Origin: an uncultured Candidatus Saccharibacteria bacterium | GTDB lineage: Bacteria; Patescibacteriota; Minisyncoccia; UBA6257; XYB1-36-10 | Assembly (NCBI GenBank): GCA_964362215.1 | Contig: CAYIDJ010000002.1 | Coordinates: forward strand, 911 to 64,910 | Reading direction: 5' to 3' | Length of the DNA: 64,000 nt | Shown: positions 3,809 through 63,350 of the stretch, piece by piece | How positions within the stretch are numbered: the first letter of the stretch is position 1 | How the letters are laid out: each line of letters begins with the position of its first letter | Translations under genes and position numbers: made by a program | The notes under the pieces: model-generated | What the model was told of the DNA's origin: nothing | Seen by the model: the letters and a program-made list of their open reading frames with translations, nothing else | Databases searched by the model: none

Positions 3809-3906
3809 CTAGATAATAGATGGAAGATATAAGATAGAGAGAGGAGAGATTCTTCACTGCGTTCAGAATGACAGAAAGGGAGCGGAAATATTATAGATAA
3901 GATAAA

Positions 3907-4410: not shown

Positions 4411-4419
4411 TGAAGAGGA

Positions 4420-4447
4420 CTGGATTCCTGCTTTCGCAGGAATGACA
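4420..4447. repeat. REP-like hairpin copy
   Basis: ctggattcctgctttcgcaggaatgaca directly after the STAS gene stop. Confidence 0.8.
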
Positions 4448-5431: not shown

Positions 5432-5536
5432 AGTAAAAGATAATTGTTTGTGAGACACGTGTATTTTCTGGCTGGAAAATCACTCTGATTCGCACCGCCG
5501 TGCTCCGCGCGGTCTCACAAACAATTATCTTTTACT
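5432..5536. repeat. Long hairpin element, family C copy 1 (25-bp perfect inverted repeat, ~55-nt conserved loop)
   Basis: agtaaaagataattgtttgtgagac (5432-5456) is the exact reverse complement of 5512-5536. The loop ends in ctctgattcgcaccgccgtgctccgcgcg, which is shared with 42694-42748. Confidence 0.85.
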
Positions 5537-5606
5537 GTACACTTGGCTCTGGCGAATGTTTTTGTCGATTGGATTGTGCCGAGGGGAAAGAAATTATATT
5601 TAAGAT

Positions 5607-5656
5607 AGCCTGCCTAAATTTTTACATGAGTAAAAAATTAGGCAGGCTTTAATTTT
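5607..5656 (+). terminator. Terminator-like hairpin of the AGCC(C/T)GCC-AT-rich family
   Basis: agcctgcctaaattttta-catgag-taaaaaattaggcaggct followed by ttaattttt. Confidence 0.6.
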
Positions 5657-6635: not shown

Positions 6636-6688
6636 GAGTGGAGTTAAGGTAGCTGTCTTTTTACAAAAAAAGACAGCTTTTGATTTTT
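6636..6688 (+). terminator. Conserved 3-prime module (GAG..GTTAAGGTAGC + hairpin + T tract), stand-alone copy
   Basis: gagtggagttaaggtagctgtc-tttttacaaaaaaa-gacagcttttgattttt right after the aldolase stop. Confidence 0.6.
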
Positions 6689-6789
6689 AGGAGCGGTGTT
6701 GTTGTTGACTGATTTTGATGGATGTGGTATACTAATTGAAGTTAAATAACTTTGATAATAAAAAAATAAATAAATAAGGGAGAAAAAAG

Positions 6790-9820: not shown

Positions 9821-9966
9821 TTTTTTTTAAATTTAGAATATTTTTTTGAACTGGGTATAAGTGCCCAGTTTTATTTTGGCGTGTTTGGTATAATTAAATT
9901 ACTAATTTTTAATTAAAGTAGCCCTTCGATAAACTCAGGGACTATTACGACTTTTTTTAACAGTTT

Positions 9967-12450: not shown

Positions 12451-12487
12451 AGTACGTAAAATAAAAAGCAAATAGCGAATCTCGGGA

Positions 12488-12542
12488 CTGGATTCCTCTG
12501 CCATTCGTCAGTTGGCGGAGGCGGAGGCGGACGGGAATGACA
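12488..12542. repeat. REP-like hairpin with nested GGCGGAGGCGG-type insert
   Basis: ctggattcc...acgggaatgaca arms enclose tctgccattcgtcagttggcggaggcggaggcgg, which is related to the hairpin at 31628-31658. Confidence 0.7.
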
Positions 12543-12576
12543 AGGCGGGAAGGGAATGATAGGATAAAATTTAAAT

Positions 12577-16173: not shown

Positions 16174-16368
16174 CCATACTAAAAAAATTTCTGGATGCTG
16201 GTAATGCGGCTCATAATATACTCTCGCTACCGTCCATCTCCCCAGCGAGGAGATGGACTACGCCTCGCCCTCGCTCGTCCCGACTAAAGTCGGGACACCG
16301 TGCCTGCTCGGGCTCGGATGCGCGCTCGAGTATATTATGAGCCGCATAGTGTATATTTTTTAGTGTGG
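16174..16368. repeat. Nested palindromic element, family B copy 1
   Basis: Outer arms atgcggctcataatatactc (16204-16223) and gagtatattatgagccgcat (16328-16347). Inner hairpins are gtccatctcc/ggagatggac and gtcccgac/gtcgggac. Homologous to 63101-63258. Confidence 0.85.
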
Positions 16369-16463
16369 ACTCGTGGGGGTTAGTGGAGAGAGTCCATGGC
16401 GGTCTCGGAAGGAAGCTTTTTCTTTACGAGTGATGTTTAGGGGAAGTTTTGATATATACTTGT

Positions 16464-16570
16464 ATAGAAGTCGCTAATGGCAATGGGGAGAATAAACCAC
16501 TCTTTTCTTTCCTACTTTAGGGGAGAGGTTGGATAATAAGGTAGTCCCGAATTACTCGGGACTTTTATTA
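16464..16570 (+). repeat. Family-A right-arm fragment + conserved 3-prime module
   Basis: atagaagtcgctaatggcaatggggagaataaa (compare 22764-22795), then gggagaggttggataataaggtagtcccga-attac-tcgggacttttatta. Confidence 0.7.
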
Positions 16571-16616
16571 TATAAAGAATAATTTAAGAGAAGTAGATGA
16601 AAAAAAGAAAAGCCGC

Positions 16617-16943: not shown

Positions 16944-17140
16944 TTTTTCTATCCTTTCCGTTTTTAGTTTTTTATTTACTGGTTTTAATTTAGCGGGGTT
17001 GGGGTTGAGTGTCAAATTTGTGTGGGAGAAATGATGGAAGGAGGAGGGAATAGCGAAGGGAGAAGAAATTCCTCGCCCTACGGGCACTCCATGCAACAAA
17101 AGGGAGAATATGAATTTGTTGACGTGGTATAATCTAAATA

Positions 17141-18451
17141 ATGGTGAAAAATCTGGCGGAGTTGGCAAAAAGTCCGGCGCGGGAGAAGGCGCTGGAAATT
17201 CTTAACGCGGGATATGAGGCGATAAACATTCGGCGATTGGTTAGCCGCAAGGTGCGTTTAGAGGGTTCGCTATTTAAGGTTGAGGGGAGAGAATTTGATT
17301 TGAAAGAGTACAATCGTGTTTTTTTGGTGGCCTTTGGTAAGGGAGCGGCAGATTTCGCGTTGGCAGTGGCGGGGGTGTTGGGTGACAGATTGGAGCGAGG
17401 AATAGCGCTGGATATAATCAAGCCAGAGGCGGAATTACTGGAGGTTATTCCGGAAAGAATTGAGTTTTTAACGGGGACGCATCCGTTGCCGTCAGCGGCC
17501 AATATCGCGGCGACAAAAAAAATAGCAGGGCTGGCTGACCGACTGGGAAAGAGAGATTTGCTTTTGGTACTGGTTACCGGCGGCGGGTCGTCACTACTAA
17601 CAGCGTCGGAGCGAGAGTTTACGGACGCGCTGGTAGCGATAACAACATTGACTAAGGCGGGCGCACCGATTAATGAGCTCAACACGGTGCGCAAGCACTT
17701 GGGGGAGTTAAAAGGAGGAGGGTTGGCGCGGTTGGCGTATCCGGCGACGGTGGTCTCTTTAATCGCCTGTGATGTGTGTTATCGAGCGGATATTGATTTA
17801 TCCCTGGTGGCGTCAGGCCCGACGGTTGAAGATAAAAGCACAAAGCGTGAGGCGGAGGAGATACTGACGCGGTACGGGCTTAATCCATACTTATTTAATT
17901 TGCGGGAGACGCCGAAGGAGGAGATGTATTTTGAACGGGTGGAAAACATATTGGTGGCGTGTAATCAAGACGCGTTGGCGGCGATGGAGGAGAAGGCGGC
18001 TGAATTAGGACTATCGGCGAAAATTTTTTCCACGGCGGTGGCGGGGGAGGCACGGAATGTTTTTCACGCGATACTGGACAAGATAGAGCCGGGGGAAGTA
18101 GCGCTGGCCGGAGGGGAGACGACGGTTAAGATAAGAGGGAGGGGGCGTGGAGGAAGAAATCAGGAAGCGGTTTTAGGCGGGTTGAGATATGTTTATGGGC
18201 ACAAGGATTGGCCGGGGGGGACGTGGGCGATAATAAGCGCGGCTTCCGACGGAAGGGATAATACACCGGCGGCGGGGGCGATGGGGGACAATTTTACGTT
18301 TGAGGCGGCGCGGAAGCAGGGGTTGGATATGGTCAAGTTTTTGGACGATAACGATTCATTTAACTTCTTGGCGGCAACGGGAGACTTAATTTATGCGGAC
18401 CGGAAGAGTTTTAACGTGGCGGATTTGATGTTGGCGGTGAGGGAGAAATGA
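17141..18451 (+). CDS. Glycerate 2-kinase (DUF4147 + MOFRL family)
   Basis: 'FGKGAADFA', 'LVLVTGGGSSLL', 'LNTVRKHLGELKGGGLA', 'GGETTVKIRGRGRGGRNQE' are typical of TtuD/GCK-type glycerate kinases. Confidence 0.8.
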   Translation: MVKNLAELAKSPAREKALEILNAGYEAINIRRLVSRKVRLEGSLFKVEGREFDLKEYNRVFLVAFGKGAADFALAVAGVLGDRLERGIALDIIKPEAELLEVIPERIEFLTGTHPLPSAANIAATKKIAGLADRLGKRDLLLVLVTGGGSSLLTASEREFTDALVAITTLTKAGAPINELNTVRKHLGELKGGGLARLAYPATVVSLIACDVCYRADIDLSLVASGPTVEDKSTKREAEEILTRYGLNPYLFNLRETPKEEMYFERVENILVACNQDALAAMEEKAAELGLSAKIFSTAVAGEARNVFHAILDKIEPGEVALAGGETTVKIRGRGRGGRNQEAVLGGLRYVYGHKDWPGGTWAIISAASDGRDNTPAAGAMGDNFTFEAARKQGLDMVKFLDDNDSFNFLAATGDLIYADRKSFNVADLMLAVREK

Positions 18452-21259: not shown

Positions 21260-21307
21260 TTATATTTATTTTCCCCATTACCCATAGCTCCGCTATTCGC
21301 TTAACGT

Positions 21308-22573: not shown

Positions 22574-22590
22574 AAAATATGTTTTGTGAT

Positions 22591-22791
22591 ATTCTCCCCA
22601 TTACCATCGGCTCCGCTATTCGCTTAAAGCGAGTAATATTCACTCCCCTCTAATTTGGCTTATAAAACGGCTGGTTCCCGTTCCTCCCAAGGGGATTTTC
22701 CGACCAGCCGTTTTATAAAAGCCAAATTCTTCGTTGCGTTCATTTATCGCTAATTAAGCTCATAGAAGTCGCCAATGGTAATAGGGAGAAT
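22591..22791. repeat. Nested palindromic element, family A copy 1 (~200 bp)
   Basis: attctccccattaccatcggc (22591-22611) pairs with gccaatggtaatagggagaat (22771-22791). Inner arms ...ggcttataaaacggctggt / accagccgttttataaaagcc also pair. Homologous to 34824-35040. Confidence 0.85.
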
Positions 22792-22810
22792 AATTTACCC
22801 TTTTTATTTG

Positions 22811-22880
22811 GAGAGGGGGTTGGACTTAAGGTAGCCCGCCAAAATTTTTGCTTGCGCAAAAACTTAGGCGGGCTTTTGTT
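22811..22880 (+). terminator. Conserved 3-prime module: GAGAGGGGGTTGGACTTAAGGTAGCCCGCC hairpin + T tract
   Basis: agcccgccaaaatttttg-cttgcg-caaaaacttaggcgggct then tttgtttt. The same module recurs at 8 other sites. Confidence 0.7.
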
Positions 22881-22881
22881 T

Positions 22882-22917
22882 TATCCACTTATAATACATA
22901 TGTATTATAAGTGGATA
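22882..22917. repeat. 36-bp perfect palindrome P1 (TATCCACTTATAATACATATGTATTATAAGTGGATA)
   Basis: It is its own reverse complement. Related copies are at 37772-37807 and 46275-46310, with half copies at 26081-26095 and 42601-42610. Confidence 0.85.
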
Positions 22918-23046: not shown

Positions 23047-23120
23047 ATTTTTTTCCTTTCTTGAATGAGAGCTGATTAAATTATACCGAAAACTTGGCAG
23101 AGATGCTATAATTAAAAAAT

Positions 23121-24137
23121 ATGAAAATAGGGGTTTGGCAGATGGAGGGGTGGGAGGCGGAATATTTTACGAAGGCATTAGCGGGGCAGGAGGTGGAAAT
23201 TTTTTCGGGCAAGCTGTCGGCGGAGGAGTTGCCGGAGAAGCGTGATTTTGAGGCGATTTGCGTGTTTGTGGGGTTGCCAGTTTCGGTGGAGGTGATTGAT
23301 GCCTTTCCGAAATTAAAATTGATTACCACCCGTTCTACCGGGTATGACCATATTGATTTGAAAGCGGCGGGGGCGAAGGGAATACAAGTCGGATACGTGC
23401 CAAGTTACGGAGAGAACACGGTAGCGGAGCACACTTTCGGGCTGCTTTTAACTTTATCGCACCATATTTACGAAGGGTATGACCGGTTGCGGGAGAAGGG
23501 GGAGTACAGTTTTGAGGGGTTGGAGGGATTTGATTTGAAAGGGAGGACAATAGGAGTGGTGGGAACAGGACGAATCGGAGTTCACTCCATAAGGATAGCC
23601 AAGGGATTTGAGATGAAGGTAATTGCTTATGACGCGTATCCCAAGGCAGGGTTGGATAAGGAGATAGGGTTTGAATATAAGAAAAGTTTGGAAGAGCTGC
23701 TGGCAGAGGCGGATGTGGTAACACTGCACGTGCCGTATATGTCGGAGACGCATCATCTGATAAACAAAGATAATATCGGGAAGTTTAAGAAGGGGGCGGT
23801 GCTGATAAATACGTCGCGGGGAGCGGTGGTGGAGACGGACGCGCTAGTCCGGGCTCTTAAGGAGGGGCATTTGGGCGGGGCGGGGTTGGACGTGATGGAA
23901 GAGGAGGGGGTGATGGCGGACGAGATGGGATACTTACTTTCGGGAAGCGAGAAGACGGATTTGAAGGTGGTGTTAGAAAACCACGCTTTAATTGATATGC
24001 CAAACGTAATAGTGACGCCGCATTCGGCGTTTAACACACGGGAGGCGAAGGAGAGGATTTTGAAGACAACGGTGGAGAATATATTGAGTTTTGCGGAGAG
24101 CGGAAAAACAAAAAATTCAGTAGAAGATATTAAGTAG
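23121..24137 (+). CDS. D-isomer-specific 2-hydroxyacid dehydrogenase (D-lactate dehydrogenase-like)
   Basis: NAD motif 'GVVGTGRIGVHSIRIAKGF', 'LINTSRGAVV', catalytic 'VTPHSAFNT'. TGcTATAAT (23104-23112) lies 8 nt before the ATG. Confidence 0.85.
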   Translation: MKIGVWQMEGWEAEYFTKALAGQEVEIFSGKLSAEELPEKRDFEAICVFVGLPVSVEVIDAFPKLKLITTRSTGYDHIDLKAAGAKGIQVGYVPSYGENTVAEHTFGLLLTLSHHIYEGYDRLREKGEYSFEGLEGFDLKGRTIGVVGTGRIGVHSIRIAKGFEMKVIAYDAYPKAGLDKEIGFEYKKSLEELLAEADVVTLHVPYMSETHHLINKDNIGKFKKGAVLINTSRGAVVETDALVRALKEGHLGGAGLDVMEEEGVMADEMGYLLSGSEKTDLKVVLENHALIDMPNVIVTPHSAFNTREAKERILKTTVENILSFAESGKTKNSVEDIK

Positions 24138-24247: not shown

Positions 24248-24817
24248 TCATTGAGCAGCGGAAATTTCTTCTTTTTCAAGAATCGCTGCTATTTTCTTAA
24301 TACAGGCATAGGCCTTGGGAGAGTGGATGCTGGTAAAGCAAAAGATGTTTTTATATTCTTCCACGGTTGAGGCGAATTCCATGGCCTTCTCCAAGGCCTT
24401 TCTTTCCACCTCGCTGCCGCCTGGAGCTTTCCGGCAGATACCCAGACACTCTTTCACGGTTGAGGCGAATTCCATGGCCTTCTCCAAGGCCTTTTTTTTC
24501 ATCTCGCTGCCGCCTGGAGCTTTCTGGCAGATATCCAGACACTCTTCCACGGTTGAGGCGAATTCCATGGCCTTCTCCAAGGCCTTTTTTTCCACCTCGC
24601 TGCCGCCTGGAGCTTTCCGGCAGATACCCAGACACTCTTCCACGGTTGAGGCGGAGAGAAGTTTCTTCATTATGTCGGTTTCCTCCGGTAATGGCACATC
24701 GAGGGCTGAACAAACTTGGTCTCTTTTGTCTTGACCAAGAATCAGGCACAACCTATCAACTAACACTGAATTGTCCATAACAGAACTCCCTTCACTTTTT
24801 TGGGTTTTAATTAACAC
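24248..24817 (-). CDS. Tandem-repeat protein (31-aa helical repeats ASTVEECLxICxKAPGGSExxKKALEKAMEF)
   Basis: The longest of several open frames over the repeat (189 aa) and the only one with unique N- and C-terminal flanks. It sits between a terminator and a divergent promoter region. Confidence 0.5.
   Translation of the reverse strand: MLIKTQKSEGSSVMDNSVLVDRLCLILGQDKRDQVCSALDVPLPEETDIMKKLLSASTVEECLGICRKAPGGSEVEKKALEKAMEFASTVEECLDICQKAPGGSEMKKKALEKAMEFASTVKECLGICRKAPGGSEVERKALEKAMEFASTVEEYKNIFCFTSIHSPKAYACIKKIAAILEKEEISAAQ
24362..24653. repeat. 93-bp tandem repeat, ~3.1 copies, near-identical
   Basis: cacggttgaggcgaattccatggcc recurs at 24362, 24455, 24548 and 24641, an exact 93-nt (31-codon) period. 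Confidence 0.9.
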
Positions 24818-25955: not shown

Positions 25956-25987
25956 GGCGGGAGGAAAAAATATAAAGTTCAGGCAAT

Positions 25988-26095
25988 ATTCTCCCCATTA
26001 CCACTGGCTCCGCTATTCGCTTAAAGCGGATAATATTCGCTCCAATCCAATTTGGCTTATAAAATGACCGGTTCCCGTTGTTTTATAAGTGGATA
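25988..26095. repeat. Family A left arm only (truncated copy) fused to a half P1 palindrome
   Basis: attctccccattaccactggctccgctattcgcttaaagcgg...ggttcccgtt, then ttttataagtggata. The right arm is missing. Confidence 0.75.
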
Positions 26096-26144
26096 GAGTA
26101 TAAAAAGGTGATGTCAGGGTGATAGTTGTTGTATAATAGCGGGG

Positions 26145-26843
26145 ATGGAAGAAATAGAGCGGAAGAGACTGGAGGTGGAGAGGGACAAGAAGTGGCGTGT
26201 ACTTGGCCGGCGGGCGGCGGTTTTTGAGTGGATGCCATTCGTGGAGGTGGCAATGGTCGCGGGAAGCATGGCGATGGGGACGGCGCGGATAGAGTCGGAT
26301 TTTGATTTGATTTTGGGAATGAAGACGAGGAGAATTTTTACGGGGAGATTTTTTTTGACGATGATTTTAGCGGGGATGGGATGGCGGAAGCGGCGAAATA
26401 GCCAGACAACTCATAATCGGTTTTGCCTGAACCATTTTGTGACGGCGGAGTTGTATTGTTTGCGGCCGCCATATAATGTTTACTGGGAGGAATTGTATCG
26501 GCGGCTGGTACCGGTTTATGGAAAGCGGGAGGAAATAAACAAGTTTTTGGCGGCGAATAGGTGGGCTAGAGCGGGGGAGTTTAGAGATGACGGACGGTGG
26601 CGGGGCGGAAAGCGAAGATGGTTAAAAAGAGCCACGGAGAGAGTTATGGGCGGGCGGTTTGGTAATTGGCTGGAGCGGCGATTAGGAATTTGGCAGTTGA
26701 AGCGAATAGCGCAGAGCGCGGCGGAGGATATGGGATACAAACCGCGGATGCATTATGACTGGACAGAGTTGGAATTTCATCCGGATACAAGAAGGATAGA
26801 AGAGTGGCTGAAACAAGAGGGATATATTTATCAAAACAAATAG
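26145..26843 (+). CDS. Pol-beta-superfamily nucleotidyltransferase-domain protein
   Basis: 'VAGSMAMGTARIESDFDLILG' fits hG[GS]x9-13Dh[DE]h. The rest is helical and Arg/Trp-rich. Confidence 0.6.
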   Translation: MEEIERKRLEVERDKKWRVLGRRAAVFEWMPFVEVAMVAGSMAMGTARIESDFDLILGMKTRRIFTGRFFLTMILAGMGWRKRRNSQTTHNRFCLNHFVTAELYCLRPPYNVYWEELYRRLVPVYGKREEINKFLAANRWARAGEFRDDGRWRGGKRRWLKRATERVMGGRFGNWLERRLGIWQLKRIAQSAAEDMGYKPRMHYDWTELEFHPDTRRIEEWLKQEGYIYQNK

Positions 26844-34823: not shown

Positions 34824-35040
34824 TATATTCCCCCACCACCATTCGCTCCGCTACTCGCTCAAAGCGAATAATATTCGCTCCGTTCTAATTTGGCTTATAA
34901 AATGACTGGTTCCCATTCCTCCCTCGATAGAACCTCGGGATTTTCCGACCAGTCATATTTATAGAAGCCAAATTGTTCATTCCGCTCATTTATCGCTTAT
35001 TAAGCTCGTAGAAGTCGCGAATAATGATGGGGAGAATATA
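34824..35040. repeat. Nested palindromic element, family A copy 2
   Basis: tatattcccccaccaccattcgc pairs with gcgaataatgatggggagaatata. Collinear with 22591-22791 throughout. Confidence 0.85.
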
Positions 35041-35055
35041 AACTATTCTTCCTGG

Positions 35056-35125
35056 GGGAGAGGTTGGATGAGAATGTAGCCCGCCAAAATTTTTGCTTAC
35101 GCAAAAACTTAGGCGGGCTTTTGTT
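35056..35125 (+). terminator. Conserved 3-prime module (GGGGAGAGGTTGGATGAGAATGTAGCCCGCC hairpin + T tract)
   Basis: Hairpin agcccgccaaaatttttg-cttacg-caaaaacttaggcgggct (35078-35118), then tttgttt. Confidence 0.7.
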
Positions 35126-35191
35126 TATATGGGAAAATCGGAATTGAAAAAAAACAGCGCCGAGGGTTTGGGTTTTTTTAATGTTAGTTGG

Positions 35192-37768: not shown

Positions 37769-37771
37769 TAT

Positions 37772-37856
37772 TATCCACTTATAAAACATATGTTTTATAA
37801 GTGGATAGGTTGGGTGTGGTTACTATAATTTTTCCACGGTCGTTGGAAAATTATAG
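37772..37856. repeat. Two-hairpin module: P1 palindrome (37772-37807) + H2 hairpin (37823-37856)
   Basis: tatccacttataaaacatatgttttataagtggata, then ctataatttttccacggtcgttggaaaattatag. The same pair is found in reverse order at 46231-46310. Confidence 0.8.
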
Positions 37857-39081: not shown

Positions 39082-39217
39082 ATTGCTTTTTCCGCTATAT
39101 TTTGCCGGGTACGAACTGGCTCGCTCCAGCGGCGAGCCGTTCTCTGATCTCGCCGGCCGGAAGAACCAAGCCCGGCCGGCTCTGATAGCCCCTCTAAAAT
39201 ATAGCGGGAAAAGCAAT
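39082..39217. repeat. Nested palindromic element, family D
   Basis: attgctttttccgctatatttt (39082-39103) is the reverse complement of aaaatatagcgggaaaagcaat (39196-39217). The interior is GC-rich. Confidence 0.8.
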
Positions 39218-39242
39218 AAAAAAATAAAACAATACTTTTTTA

Positions 39243-39290
39243 GAGGGAGAGTTAGGTAATATAGCGTCCGCCCAAGGCGGATTTTATTTT
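39243..39290 (+). terminator. Conserved 3-prime module (GAGGGAGAGTTAGGTAATATAGCGTCCGCC hairpin + T tract)
   Basis: tccgcc-caa-ggcgga (39267-39281), then ttttattttt. Confidence 0.65.
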
Positions 39291-39345
39291 TATAAAAAAA
39301 CCGCTCAGGGCGAGCGGCGGAAAAAGGGTGGATTTGTCAAATGGT

Positions 39346-42552: not shown

Positions 42553-42665
42553 AATACCAAGTTAATTTTATATTAAGTGGCGGGGTAGAGCAATGGAGGA
42601 AGTGGATAGGTTGGTTTGTGTATAATTATGAATAACTTGCCAACATACTCTCGCTTAGCGGCAAT

Positions 42666-42776
42666 CAGAAGCCCAGTTTCCTGTTTGTTGGACACGGATA
42701 TTTTTTTGCTAAAAAATTCCTCTGACTCGCACCGCCGTGCTCCGCGCGGTCCAACAAACAGGAAACTGGGCTTCTC
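42666..42776. repeat. Long hairpin element, family C copy 2 (27-bp perfect stem, conserved loop)
   Basis: agaagcccagtttcctgtttgttggac pairs with gtccaacaaacaggaaactgggcttct. The loop 3-prime half ctctgactcgcaccgccgtgctccgcgcg matches the copy at 5484-5511. Confidence 0.85.
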
Positions 42777-42827: not shown

Positions 42828-42877
42828 GAGGAAGAGTTGGATGATAATGTAGCCTGCTTGCCGGCAGGCCTTGATTT
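42828..42877 (+). repeat. Conserved 3-prime module in a divergent promoter region (GAGGAAGAGTTGGATGATAATGTAGCCTGC hairpin)
   Basis: gcctgc-ttgccg-gcaggc without a clean T tract. It lies between the pyrG (-) and pgk (+) starts, so a terminator role is doubtful here. Confidence 0.6.
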
Positions 42878-42914
42878 GTAGCAGTACAAACAAAGCGTGT
42901 ATAATGGTTTAAAA

Positions 42915-44021
42915 ATGGCAATACAATTTATTTCTAAAGCCAGCCGGAGGGAACTTACCGGGACGGCCATAGTACGGCTGGATTTTAATGACGCGGATGG
43001 GTGGCGGATAGAGCAGTCGGCGCGGACGATAAAGTTTCTGATTAAAAAAGCGGATAAGCTGGTTATTTTGGGGCACCGAGGCCGGCCGAAGCCGTCAATG
43101 CATATAACGCGGAACAATAAAGAGTTCTCGCTTAAGGGAGAGGAAGCGCGTCTGGCGAAAATTGTCGGGCGGTCGGTGGAATTTATCGCTCACAGCCGGA
43201 TATCGGAGGCGGCCAACGAGATACGGAACGCGGCGGTGGGCGCGGTTTTTCTGTTGGAGAATGTGCGGTTTTTAGACGGCGAGGAGGAGAATAACACGGA
43301 GTTGGCGCGGCACCTGGCGTCGCTGGGAGATTATTATGTAAATGAAGCGTTTGCCAACTGCCACCGGGCGCACGCTTCCATGGTGGGGATTACCAAGTTT
43401 GCGCCGAGTTATGGCGGGCTGCGACTGGAAGAGGAAATAGTTAATTTGTCGCGAGTGATGAAGAAGCCGAGACGTCCGCTGGTGATGATATTCGGCGGAG
43501 CGAAGGCGGACTCAAAACTGCCGGTGATTGCGCATTTTCGCAGGCGGGCGGATGCTTTTTTGGTGGGAGGAGCGCTGGGAAATACTTTGCTTTATTTAGA
43601 AGGTGTGAACATAGGGGAGTCAGTGGCGGAGAGAAAAATTGACGGCATGATATTGAAAGTGGCGCGGATGAAAAATATAAAGGGACTGGTTGATGCGCGG
43701 AGACGAGGCGGAAAGATCTTAGATATCGGACCGAAGACAGAGAAGATATTTATGGGGGAGATAAAGCGGGCGAAGACAATTGTTTGGAACGGGCCGTTGG
43801 GAATGATTGAGAAGCGCGGGTTTGAGAGCGGAACGAAGGTGGTCGCTCGGGCGGTGGCGAGAACGAAGGCGTTTTCGGTGGTGGGAGGTGGGGAGACGGT
43901 CAACTTTATCCGCAAGTTGAAACTAGAGAAAAAGATTAGTTTTCTTTCCACCGGCGGGGGAGCGATGCTTGATTTTTTGGCGGGGAAGAAATTGCCGGGG
44001 ATAGAGGCGTTGAGTAAATAA
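42915..44021 (+). CDS. pgk: Phosphoglycerate kinase
   Basis: 'IVRLDFN', 'ILGHRGRPK', 'ENVRF', 'GGAKADSKL', 'WNGPLGM', 'STGGGA'. TATAAT (42900-42905) lies 9 nt before ATG 42915, so the upstream GTG start is unlikely. Confidence 0.9.
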   Translation: MAIQFISKASRRELTGTAIVRLDFNDADGWRIEQSARTIKFLIKKADKLVILGHRGRPKPSMHITRNNKEFSLKGEEARLAKIVGRSVEFIAHSRISEAANEIRNAAVGAVFLLENVRFLDGEEENNTELARHLASLGDYYVNEAFANCHRAHASMVGITKFAPSYGGLRLEEEIVNLSRVMKKPRRPLVMIFGGAKADSKLPVIAHFRRRADAFLVGGALGNTLLYLEGVNIGESVAERKIDGMILKVARMKNIKGLVDARRRGGKILDIGPKTEKIFMGEIKRAKTIVWNGPLGMIEKRGFESGTKVVARAVARTKAFSVVGGGETVNFIRKLKLEKKISFLSTGGGAMLDFLAGKKLPGIEALSK

Positions 44022-55448: not shown

Positions 55449-55530
55449 TTAATAACCAAATTAACAAATAACCGATTAAATTAACTTAAAAAGTTAGACG
55501 GGAGAAAAATAGCTTATCCACAGTAAAATG

Positions 55531-57800: not shown

Positions 57801-58191
57801 CGAGTAAATAAGGAAAGGACAGAAAAGTCATTCTGACGTTACGCCCGAACATTGGAATGACACAAGGAAGTTTGAACTTTGGGGTGGTTTGTGGGAAAAT
57901 AGGCGATAGTAGAGATTTATAAAAGAATAAAGAAAGAGAGGATTTGGCGATGGTAGGTTTAGTTAATCCAGCAGGTCCGCCTGTTTTGGGGGTTTTTAAG
58001 GTGACGTATCCAAATCCAATAAAGGAGATACCGAGCGGGATTAAGCGGTTAGAGGGTCCTTTTGCGCCGGAGAGTTCGCCTTCACAAATTATTATCGCTG
58101 ACACAAGGCAGTTTCGGCGTTGGCCGGTGCTTCATCCGTACAAGGGGCATAATTTAGATGTCCTCGCGTGAAATAAATAAGGATAACGCCG

Positions 58192-58229
58192 CCCGCCTAA
58201 ATTTTTTCCTAAGCAAAAATTTAGGCGGG
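58192..58229 (+). terminator. Terminator-like hairpin of the CCCGCC-AT-rich family
   Basis: cccgcctaaatttttt-cctaag-caaaaatttaggcggg, then tttttgttt. Confidence 0.6.
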
Positions 58230-58351
58230 TTTTTGTTTATTTATGTATTGCCGAATTCAGGCAGTTTTTGTGATAAAATAAATTCCAATGAAAATAATGG
58301 CGAGAATATAAAAACTTTAACTCGGGCGGGGTTTGTATTATTATTTAGTTA

Positions 58352-63281: not shown

Positions 63282-63350
63282 GAGGTAAGAGTTAGACATG
63301 GTGTAACCCGCCTATGTTTTACTAAGTAAAACATAGGCGGGTCTTTATTA
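63282..63350 (+). terminator. Conserved 3-prime module (GAGGTAAGAGTTAGACATGGTGTAACCCGCC hairpin + T tract)
   Basis: acccgcctatgtttta-ctaag-taaaacataggcgggt (63306-63342), then ctttatta. Confidence 0.65.

Follow-up and report, generated by a model that had tools for sequence, protein, structure and literature searches.

The window analysed here is a 64-kb stretch (64,000 nucleotides) of contig CAYIDJ010000002.1 from an uncultured bacterium. It has a GC content of ~48% and an ordinary housekeeping gene content, encoding an aldolase, MacB/FtsX, glycerate kinase, PPDK, enolase, RmuC, GroES/EL, GreA, LysRS, SerRS, Alr, YchF, PyrG, PGK, MraZ/RsmH and a penicillin-binding protein (PBP). Nearly all genes lie on the + strand, and the GC skew is positive over all 64 kb (+0.17 to +0.45). 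The enolase gene has a 100% identical copy on a contig from 0.1-µm-filtered Hainich groundwater, and the closest named relatives by enolase are Candidatus Paceibacterota and Liptonbacteria (56-59% identity), which places the window in a genome of the Patescibacteria. Between the genes recurs a module composed of a short upstream sequence (the box), a hairpin and a T-tract (U-tract in RNA), which an earlier reading of the DNA (the original prediction) had reported at nine sites, together with long palindromes of four families, A to D. We analysed the window, the 3.3 kb to its left (L083), where no further module copy is found, and a few kb of sister genomes. The module is probably not a stand-alone new signal, but one piece of a mosaic repeat system resembling repetitive extragenic palindromic (REP) sequences and bacterial interspersed mosaic elements (BIMEs).

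A stem-loop followed by a T-rich tail is present on the + strand at all nine predicted sites (Table 1), with the stem-loops spanning 19-42 nt. The box proves more heterogeneous than had been claimed for these sites: it is statistically solid at four of them (16521, 22811, 35056 and 42828), recognizable by eye at 63282 and 39243, a divergent variant at 5580, a stub at 6636 and essentially absent at 58180. The window thus holds 8-9 copies in 64 kb, all of them intergenic. A GTAG tag is present at 16521, 22811, 35056, 42828 and 6636 as well as in the copies of the sister genomes (one in L081, both in L086), and is replaced by GTAA at 63282 and by ATAG at 5580 and 39243; 58180 has none. The box can be described as a putative conserved leader of 25-30 nt belonging to the hairpin unit and consisting of three parts. 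The first is a purine run (GGAGAGG or GAGGAAGAG), which in predicted folds usually pairs with the pyrimidine run just 5' of it, e.g., CCCUUUUU/GGAGAGGG, to give a small auxiliary hairpin. The second, a GTTRGAY core, is unpaired in these folds. The third is an A-rich stretch ending in the tag, (A/T)AAKGTAG, which is predicted to pair partly with the U-tract. At 39243, the T-tract pairs with an upstream A-tract (39217-39229). Alignment of the type-1 hairpins gives 15 pairs, four of them with double substitutions; two are U.G pairs, which would be A.C mismatches on the minus strand.

The box profile was made from ten copies aligned by hand and used to search both strands of the window and of the relatives' loci; only the training copies scored, and nothing was found on the minus strand. 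In a leave-out test, nhmmer profiles with whole families removed were run against 128 kb counting both strands, and the best non-training matches were 42828 (E = 0.0036), 22811 (E = 0.007), 16521 (E = 0.015) and 35056 (E = 0.11), all of which fall 0-3 nt 5' of a terminator stem. The 5580 copy was not recovered, yet its divergent box GAGGGGAAAGAAATTATATTTAAGATAG is real because the orthologous sister-genome site carries the same variant; at 63282 and 39243, likeness to the box (GAGGTAAGAGTTAGAC and GAGGGAGAGTTAGGT) is visible by eye alone. The exact 12-mer GAGAGGTTGGAT occurs twice, where the estimated base composition predicts ~0.02 occurrences. Because the + strand is rich in purines and G, loose matches to the box are common there, 71 of the 74 three-mismatch matches to GAGAGGTTGGAT lying on the + strand, so that the weight rests on the profile result and the adjacency to terminators. 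In addition, 16521, 22811 and 35056 are homologous over ~60 nt on their 5' side (spacer and 3' arm of the A family) and are therefore related by descent rather than mutually independent. One recent segmental duplication does not explain the copies, which are old (A1 and A2 are 81% identical), occupy different gene neighbourhoods and have counterparts in other genomes. Judged from the sequence, the box exceeds chance and is not the private flank of one family; the conserved upstream box of the original prediction is real, as a part of the repeat system. Its observation that the module is always on the plus strand is true for all copies, but confounded with the direction of transcription and replication. 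Since the + strand is the coding and G-rich strand throughout the window, the strand bias is no independent evidence; five terminators of minus-strand genes lack the box, a sample too small to separate strand from gene direction.

Orthologous sites were compared with sister sequences, i.e., short contigs of relatives at 72-82% protein identity (L081, L082 and L086). After the enolase gene, the window carries palindrome A1 followed by a box and a type-1 hairpin, L081 (enolase 82% identical) carries a C-family palindrome followed by GGGTAGAAGTTGGATAATAAGGTAG and the same CCCGCCAAAATT hairpin, and L082 (80%) carries a B-family palindrome. The PPDK-enolase gap of L082 holds a type-1 hairpin, where the window has an A-arm fragment alone. 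The contigs of L081 and L082 both end within the type-1 hairpin, which is where a repeat present in many copies would interrupt an assembly. On the 5' side of the DeoC aldolase gene, the window has palindrome B1 but L086 (aldolase 72% identical) a C palindrome, while the alignment is good from ~10 nt before the purine run onward and takes in the box variant GAGRGARAGAAATTATAYTTAAGRTAG, the place of the hairpin, the T-tract and the promoter of the aldolase gene. Thus, the module was inherited with the locus and the palindrome was exchanged. At orthologous sites the box is ~80% conserved, with protein identity between the genomes at 72%. On the 3' side of the aldolase gene, the bare module 6636 stands in the window, whereas in L086 an A-like element and a partial B-like element add 385 nt between stop codon and module; the L086 hairpin AGTCCCGAATTAATCGGGACT takes the place of the window's 6651 hairpin and is 20/21 identical to the type-2 hairpin at 16543, a non-orthologous locus of the window. 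The same blocks recur across loci and genomes, an A-type box being found with a hairpin of either type 1 or type 2, and these differing combinations argue that palindrome, box and hairpin are separable blocks. Collectively, as read from the sequences, box and hairpin keep their place at the gene end, whereas the palindrome 5' of them is replaced, acquired or lost.

In more distant relatives (59-72% identity, GC 34-39%), the gaps between genes are short and contain neither box nor palindromes. Gene order is common to the window and the relatives at 59% identity, but their intergenic regions are far shorter, e.g., 25 bp (L062) against 973 bp in the window between FtsX and glycerate kinase. In a relative with a 76% identical YchF (L088 1690-1820, also L090 and L091), a type-2-like hairpin, GTAGTCCC...GGGAACTA, bears a ~50-nt hairpin-carrying insert in its loop, which hints that hairpin loops are insertion points.

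The palindromes themselves vary in a structured manner. Among four C copies, 22 of 42 predicted pairs show compensatory double changes, and entire internal hairpins are swapped for other sequences of the same shape. The three A copies keep the loop TCCCGTTCCTCCC..GGGATTTTCC and its U.G closing pair, with central stem changes such as ACGGCTGG/CCAGCCGT to ATAACTGG/CCAGTTAT. The A family has conserved 22-nt terminal arms, while in B and C the cores are conserved and the outer arms vary between copies. This covariation matches what is described for REPs and REP doublets, whose stem sub-families differ by complementary changes since the hairpin is needed for mobilisation (PMC3733652), and would by itself be no proof of RNA function. 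The claim that every long palindrome is followed by the box at 15-45 nt holds only approximately: the gaps are 15-52 nt for six palindromes, whereas C1 lies 172 nt 5' of a module and is separated from it by an A fragment. No module accompanies the two partial A copies (21267 and 25986). Around the composites of palindrome and module, only T-rich or promoter-consensus repeats were seen as potential target-site duplications, none of them convincing. Nesting occurs in L086, where C and A-like elements both lie within the same outer palindrome, TTTACARCCAAACTATTT; this further family (TTTACARCCAAACTATTT / AAATAGTTTGGYTGTAAA) encloses them at 140-175/385-410 and 1478-1500/1680-1700. The window also contains intergenic perfect or near-perfect palindromes of 28-40 bp with neither insert nor box (44580-44619, 46230-46265 and 51770-51797), which may be "empty" versions of the outer arms around families A to D.

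Table 1. Module copies, palindromes and associated features of the window, with hairpin types 1 and 2.
Feature	Position	Strand	Remarks
Module: divergent box GAGGGGAAAGAAATTATATTTAAGATAG, type-1-like hairpin 5608-5647	5584..5656	+	orthologous to L086 426-490
Bare module: rudimentary box GAGTGGAGTTAAGGTAG, hairpin 6651-6678, T-tract	6636..6688	+	without palindrome
Module: box GGGGAGAGGTTGGATAATAAGGTAG, type-2 hairpin AGTCCCGAATTACTCGGGACT, T-tract	16520..16572	+	A-family 3' arm fragment 16463-16500 upstream
Module: box GGAGAGGGGGTTGGACTTAAGGTAG, type-1 hairpin 22833-22874, T-tract	22810..22882	+	after enolase, 17 nt 3' of palindrome A1
Module: box GGGGGAGAGGTTGGATGAGAATGTAG, type-1 hairpin 35078-35119, T-tract	35054..35127	+	15 nt 3' of A2, between convergent genes
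Module: weak box GAGGGAGAGTTAGGTAATATAG, minimal hairpin TCCGCCCAAGGCGGA, T-tract	39242..39294	+	after YchF and palindrome D
Module: box GAGGAAGAGTTGGATGATAATGTAG, short hairpin GCCTGCTTGCCGGCAGGC, weak T-tract CTTGATTTGT	42828..42877	+	between divergent pyrG and pgk
Type-1 hairpin 58191-58230 with T-tract, at most TAAGGATAAC as box	58180..58240	+	essentially boxless
Module: weaker box GAGGTAAGAGTTAGACATGGTGTAA, perfect 18-bp-arm hairpin 63306-63342, T-tract	63282..63350	+	23 nt 3' of C2
Palindrome A1, 22-nt outer arms	22590..22792	+	central hairpin 22652-22728, conserved loop TCCCGTTCCTCCC..GGGATTTTCC
Palindrome A2, 81% identical to A1, compensatory stem changes	34827..35038	+	
Palindrome B1, perfect 25-bp arms	5432..5536	+	core 93% identical to B2 over 41 nt, arms differ
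Palindrome B2, perfect 27-bp arms	42667..42775	+	
Palindrome C1, perfect 20-bp arms	16204..16347	+	internal hairpins covary with C2, L081 and L086 copies
Palindrome C2	63101..63258	+	
Palindrome D, 22-nt arms 95% complementary	39082..39217	+	
A-family 5' arm fragment, no module	21267..21304	+	between PPDK and enolase
5' half of A-family element, cut off at central loop, no module	25986..26079	+	after rmuC
Extended -10 promoter-like TGTGTATAAT	42617..42626	+	upstream of B2 composite
Second extended -10 copy	42898-42905	+	precedes pgk
Hairpin type 1: AGCCCGCC, AT-rich extension, GGCGGGCT			
Hairpin type 2: AGTCCCGAATTAMTCGGGACT			

The placement of the modules is that of transcription-unit ends. 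The next gene is convergent after 16521, 35056 and 39243; where it is not, it has its own TGnTATAAT promoter a few bases before the ATG, promoters of next genes lying at 6705-6733, 17125, 23104 and 42898. Both arrangements fit the modules as real transcription-unit ends. Consistent with the original prediction that most copies could serve as intrinsic terminators, anatomy and placement together suggest that they are such terminators, and we infer from this that transcription ends there. Among 17 intergenic + strand terminator-like sites, eight are box-type and nine boxless, and a long palindrome lies upstream (15-172 nt away) of 7/8 box-type but 0/9 boxless sites (Fisher p ~4e-4, from the listing and a reading of the sequence). 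The copy at 42828, between two divergent gene starts, had been singled out as a place where termination makes no sense. The paradox is resolved by the promoter-like TGTGTATAAT upstream of B2 and by the second promoter for pgk: as its surroundings read, this module can end a separate transcript of ~250 nt running from TGTGTATAAT through B2, or insulate the pgk promoter. Matches to TG(0-2 nt)TATAAT number 16 in the window, at least eight of them just upstream of genes. A -10 promoter within the box itself (TAAGGT or GATAAT) was rejected, as the transcript start would fall inside the terminator. At 17125-17141, 23104-23121, 26130-26145 and 42898-42915, the extended -10 (TGnTATAAT) ends 6-10 nt before the ATG, leaving no room for a Shine-Dalgarno (SD) sequence, a pattern that on sequence grounds indicates frequent leaderless or near-leaderless mRNAs next to other genes with GGAGG-type SDs.

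Taken together, the module is, in our assessment, probably a block in a mosaic of repeats particular to this lineage, whose Paceibacteria-like genome belongs to the candidate phyla radiation (CPR). This reading leaves substantial room for doubt. By analogy, it is best read as a REP-like, GTAG-tagged hairpin serving as an intrinsic terminator, with the box as its leader, in a BIME-like mosaic. Its core would be a GC-clamped hairpin with a U-tract that terminates + strand transcription, and the hairpins would fall into a few dispersed families (type 1, type 2 and minimal forms), each with a 5' tag, (A/T)AAKGTAG, like that of GTAG-tagged REP elements. Such units may spread or swap loci by a single-strand mechanism like that of REPs and their REP-associated tyrosine transposases (RAYTs), or by gene conversion, and would be retained only at places, and in the orientation, that allow them to terminate transcription. 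Palindromes A to D would be separate blocks that are inserted, swapped and cut short directly 5' of box-type terminators, so that the module would mark where such elements accumulate.

GTAG-tagged REPs, which are mobilised by RAYT/TnpA-REP (Di Nocera 2013, PMC3733652; Nunvar 2010, PMC2817692), are defined by their look of GTAG followed by a GC-rich palindrome (PMC3733652). Like the module, they are short, GC-rich extragenic hairpins with several stem families, complementary variants and G.T pairs, located mostly downstream of genes and probably transcribed, and families coexist in one genome and are exchanged between loci. Unlike them, the modules are singletons in one orientation with a U-tract, and have a leader of 25-30 nt instead of 4 nt. 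The REP tag is unpaired, whereas here its AG lies within the stem (PMC3733652). REPs occur in both orientations, frequently as head-head or tail-tail dimers, but no dimer and no minus-strand match is found here. They often exceed 100 copies per genome; the 64 kb of the window hold 8-9 copies of the module. In view of the single orientation, the U-tract, the leader, the paired AG and the lack of any RAYT in the window, we do not file the module as a REP but call it a variant of such a system. Patescibacteria are not named among the REP-bearing taxa in the portion of PMC3733652 used here.

Intergenic mosaics made of a few repeat blocks in variable combinations, some of which act as terminators or mRNA-end structures, are familiar as the BIMEs of enterobacteria, pneumococcal BOX and the Correia elements of Neisseria. 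The blocks here, palindromes A-D, box and hairpin types, are likewise variably combined. They differ in that the palindromes are larger and structured (105-200 nt), nested and strand-locked, with conserved loops and covarying stems, and in that REP orientation does not alternate as in BIMEs. With intrinsic (Rho-independent) terminators that have an upstream A-tract, the modules share the GC stem-loop and U-tract, the pairing of the A-rich half of the box and the position at transcription-unit ends. In one genome such terminators normally share neither a 25-nt upstream sequence nor near-identical stems, whereas the copies here are paralogous. The ends of IS200/IS605 insertion sequences (ISs) and of their non-autonomous derivatives, the palindrome-associated transposable elements (PATEs), resemble the module in that their hairpins are strand-specific, have a short guide-like motif on the 5' side and are biased in orientation with respect to replication, but here there are no paired left- and right-end hairpins and no tnpA/tnpB, and the sequence 3' of the hairpin is unrelated from copy to copy.

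Relatives of the box were also sought in sequence collections. An exact-pattern scan of 185,579 species genomes with GGARRRGTTGGATNNNNNNGTAGYC gave 58 single matches, spread over unrelated taxa and roughly as many as chance would produce; the source lineage is therefore not in that collection. A scan of JGI metagenomes with GAGAGGTTGGATNNNAANGTAG gave 17 matches, ~9 of them independent, of which two had GTAG and a hairpin, and both are explained. One (L068-L080) consists of classical GTAG REP dimers of a soil organism with 57% GC and is no relative of the box, its box match being a chance one because the linkers differ between dimers; the other (L066 and L074) is apparently the upstream region of an opposite-strand tRNA gene, the tRNA being recognized by eye. 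Likeness of GGTTGGAT and AAGGTAGCC to 3'-terminal words of 16S rRNA was taken as a coincidence, with the order reversed and no pairing logic. TRAP-like (G/U)AG triplets, CsrA GGA pairs and IHF or DnaA-box likeness in the box were rejected as inconsistent across copies.

Several points weigh against the mosaic reading. The leave-out test did not recover the copies at 63282 (E = 11) and 39243 (E = 33), and the case for module and palindrome being separate draws mostly on a single clean orthologous locus, that upstream of the aldolase gene. The sequence read amounts to 64 kb of the genome and a few kb of sister genomes. Among the window ORFs there is neither a RAYT nor any other transposase, integrase or recombinase, and no Y1_Tnp domain. 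All copies are singletons in one orientation, unlike classical REPs, with the AG of GTAG paired in the stem and a leader far longer than a 4-nt tag, and the mosaic reading assigns no role to the GTTRGAY core. In addition, the A-family box co-occurs with the A 3' arm, which also fits a box that travels with its palindrome.

If the mosaic reading is true, it would widen the range of REP/BIME-type mosaic repeats to include the CPR (Patescibacteria), a phylum from which they are not known to have been described, and would be a case of a dispersed repeat supplying the cell's terminators. Patescibacteria are regarded as having streamlined genomes with short intergenic regions. The relatives at 59-72% identity fit this picture, whereas in the lineage of the window many gene ends bear structured, exchangeable blocks that run to hundreds of bases. 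As some orthologous sites are empty and others filled, and one site is occupied by three palindrome families in different genomes, this lineage would offer a natural system for studying block movement. For annotation, the repeats would explain assembly breaks and should not be taken for riboswitches or small ORFs.

Alternatively, box and GTAG-hairpin could be the homing site of undescribed, strand-locked mobile palindromes (A-D, 105-200 nt) in ultra-small CPR genomes, which we consider rather unlikely. The palindromes would integrate site-specifically just 5' of terminators and into the centres of other palindromes, mobilised by a putative enzyme, and three families at one site would reflect repeated targeted integration. 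The restriction of long palindromes to box-type terminators (7/8 against 0/9), the three families at the post-enolase site of three genomes and the empty and filled pair after the aldolase gene all agree with targeting. A decidedly unlikely version makes box and hairpin a recombination site at which A-D integrate in one orientation, comparable to an integron attC/attI core or to REPs as IS targets. Integron attC sites are indeed long, imperfect palindromes whose sequence varies and which follow genes in a single orientation, and the box cores GTTGGAT, GTTAGAC, GTTAGGT and GTTGGAC fit the attC core GTTRRRY. However, such a degenerate 7-mer matches once per kb by chance, and no inverse core RYYYAAC bounds the palindromes, nor is there a second core at the 5' junctions; the core lies outside the palindrome, the neighbours are syntenic housekeeping genes in conserved order rather than cassettes, and the window has no integrase or other recombinase, so that the likeness to attC is a resemblance only. 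The junctions are unmappable at the available divergence.

It is unlikely that palindrome, spacer, box and hairpin transpose together as one composite mobile element whose true 3' end is formed by box and hairpin, a function that the original prediction had entertained. Homology is unbroken from the 3' arm through the spacer to the box in A1, A2 and the A fragment at 16463, T-rich direct repeats lie at the edges of several composites, and the 9-mer GTGTATAAT, which could be a target duplication, flanks the B2 composite at 42618-42626 and 42897-42905. Yet GTGTATAAT is the functional -10 consensus of this genome, and its repetition is therefore no evidence of duplication. Moreover, the window and L086 agree 5' of the aldolase gene in box variant, promoter and placement of the hairpin but differ in the palindrome (B and C, respectively), three families follow enolase, A5 combines an A-type box with a hairpin type unlike that of A1 and A2, and both a bare module (6636) and a boxless hairpin (58180) occur. 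The aldolase locus weakens the idea of a composite 3' end, which may still apply to the A family.

More doubtful still is the suggestion that the box acts at the RNA level, as a motif of 3' untranslated regions (UTRs) or of small RNAs derived from them, be it as an SD-like site bound by ribosomes or a protein, a pairing seed or the ribosome-binding site of a mini-ORF whose stop codon at the terminator foot would allow ribosome-controlled termination. The purine run is SD-like, ATG-NNN-ATG-TAG or TTG-...-TAG mini-frames are found at 35056, 42828, 22811 and 63282, the conservation of the box (~80%) persists despite 72% protein identity, and the palindromes carry C-rich, CCUCC-like loops able to pair with it. 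The mini-ORF or ribosome site of the original prediction is not borne out by the copies and their orthologues: start codon and frame are not conserved, which also counts against a leader-peptide attenuator, the ATG is missing at 16521 and 39243 and from L081 and both L086 copies, and the SD-to-start spacing varies over 0-12 nt. In most copies, pairing with the pyrimidine run 5' of it is predicted to hide the purine run, and ~1 copy per 8 kb is high for a trans-acting regulator. Rfam searches of the window, modules, palindromes and sister loci at gathering and permissive thresholds matched no module or palindrome, the only matches in the window being RNase P RNA and two tRNAs.

That the sites are merely unrelated terminators, alike upstream through + strand G/purine richness and A-tracts complementary to the U-tract, is highly improbable and largely refuted: loose matches to GAGAGGTTGGAT abound on the + strand, the U-tract is partly complementary to the 3' half of the box and 63282, 39243 and 5580 fail the leave-out test, but the exact 12-mer is in excess, every leave-out match (E 0.004-0.1) abuts a terminator, and the same box and hairpin recur in other genomes while nine other terminators lack the box.

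Further motifs were seen in the window. The DnaA-box-like TTATCCAC occurs nine times against 1.95 expected, at sites including 22881-22917, 37771-37807, 46441-46448, 55514-55521 and 48145-48152 (minus strand). Two perfect 36-bp palindromes each consist of two inverted copies, and other copies lie just 5' of promoters, which on sequence grounds suggests a binding site of a global DNA-binding protein. A second motif, unrelated to the box, combines GGATTCC, a small hairpin, GGAATGACA and a purine run 5' of + strand genes (1894-2030, 3850-3885, 4417-4446, 12480-12550 and 57830-57870), and precedes the gene at 2132 as three tandem copies. The minus-strand ORF 24248-24817, which has no confident Pfam domain, contains at 24357-24653 three 93-bp repeats in tandem (95-98% identical) and so encodes a repeated 31-aa unit. 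The RNase P RNA (47568-48063) is 496 nt long compared with a 367-position model, i.e., it has large insertions. Finally, at 9886-9966, a promoter, TGGTATAAT (9886), is followed by AAGTAGCCCTTCGA...CAGGGACTA and a T-run before a Na+/H+ exchanger/TrkA gene. This element may be a leader or attenuator, and a similar TAGCCCTTCGA...CAGGGA element is found in L083 at 406-450.

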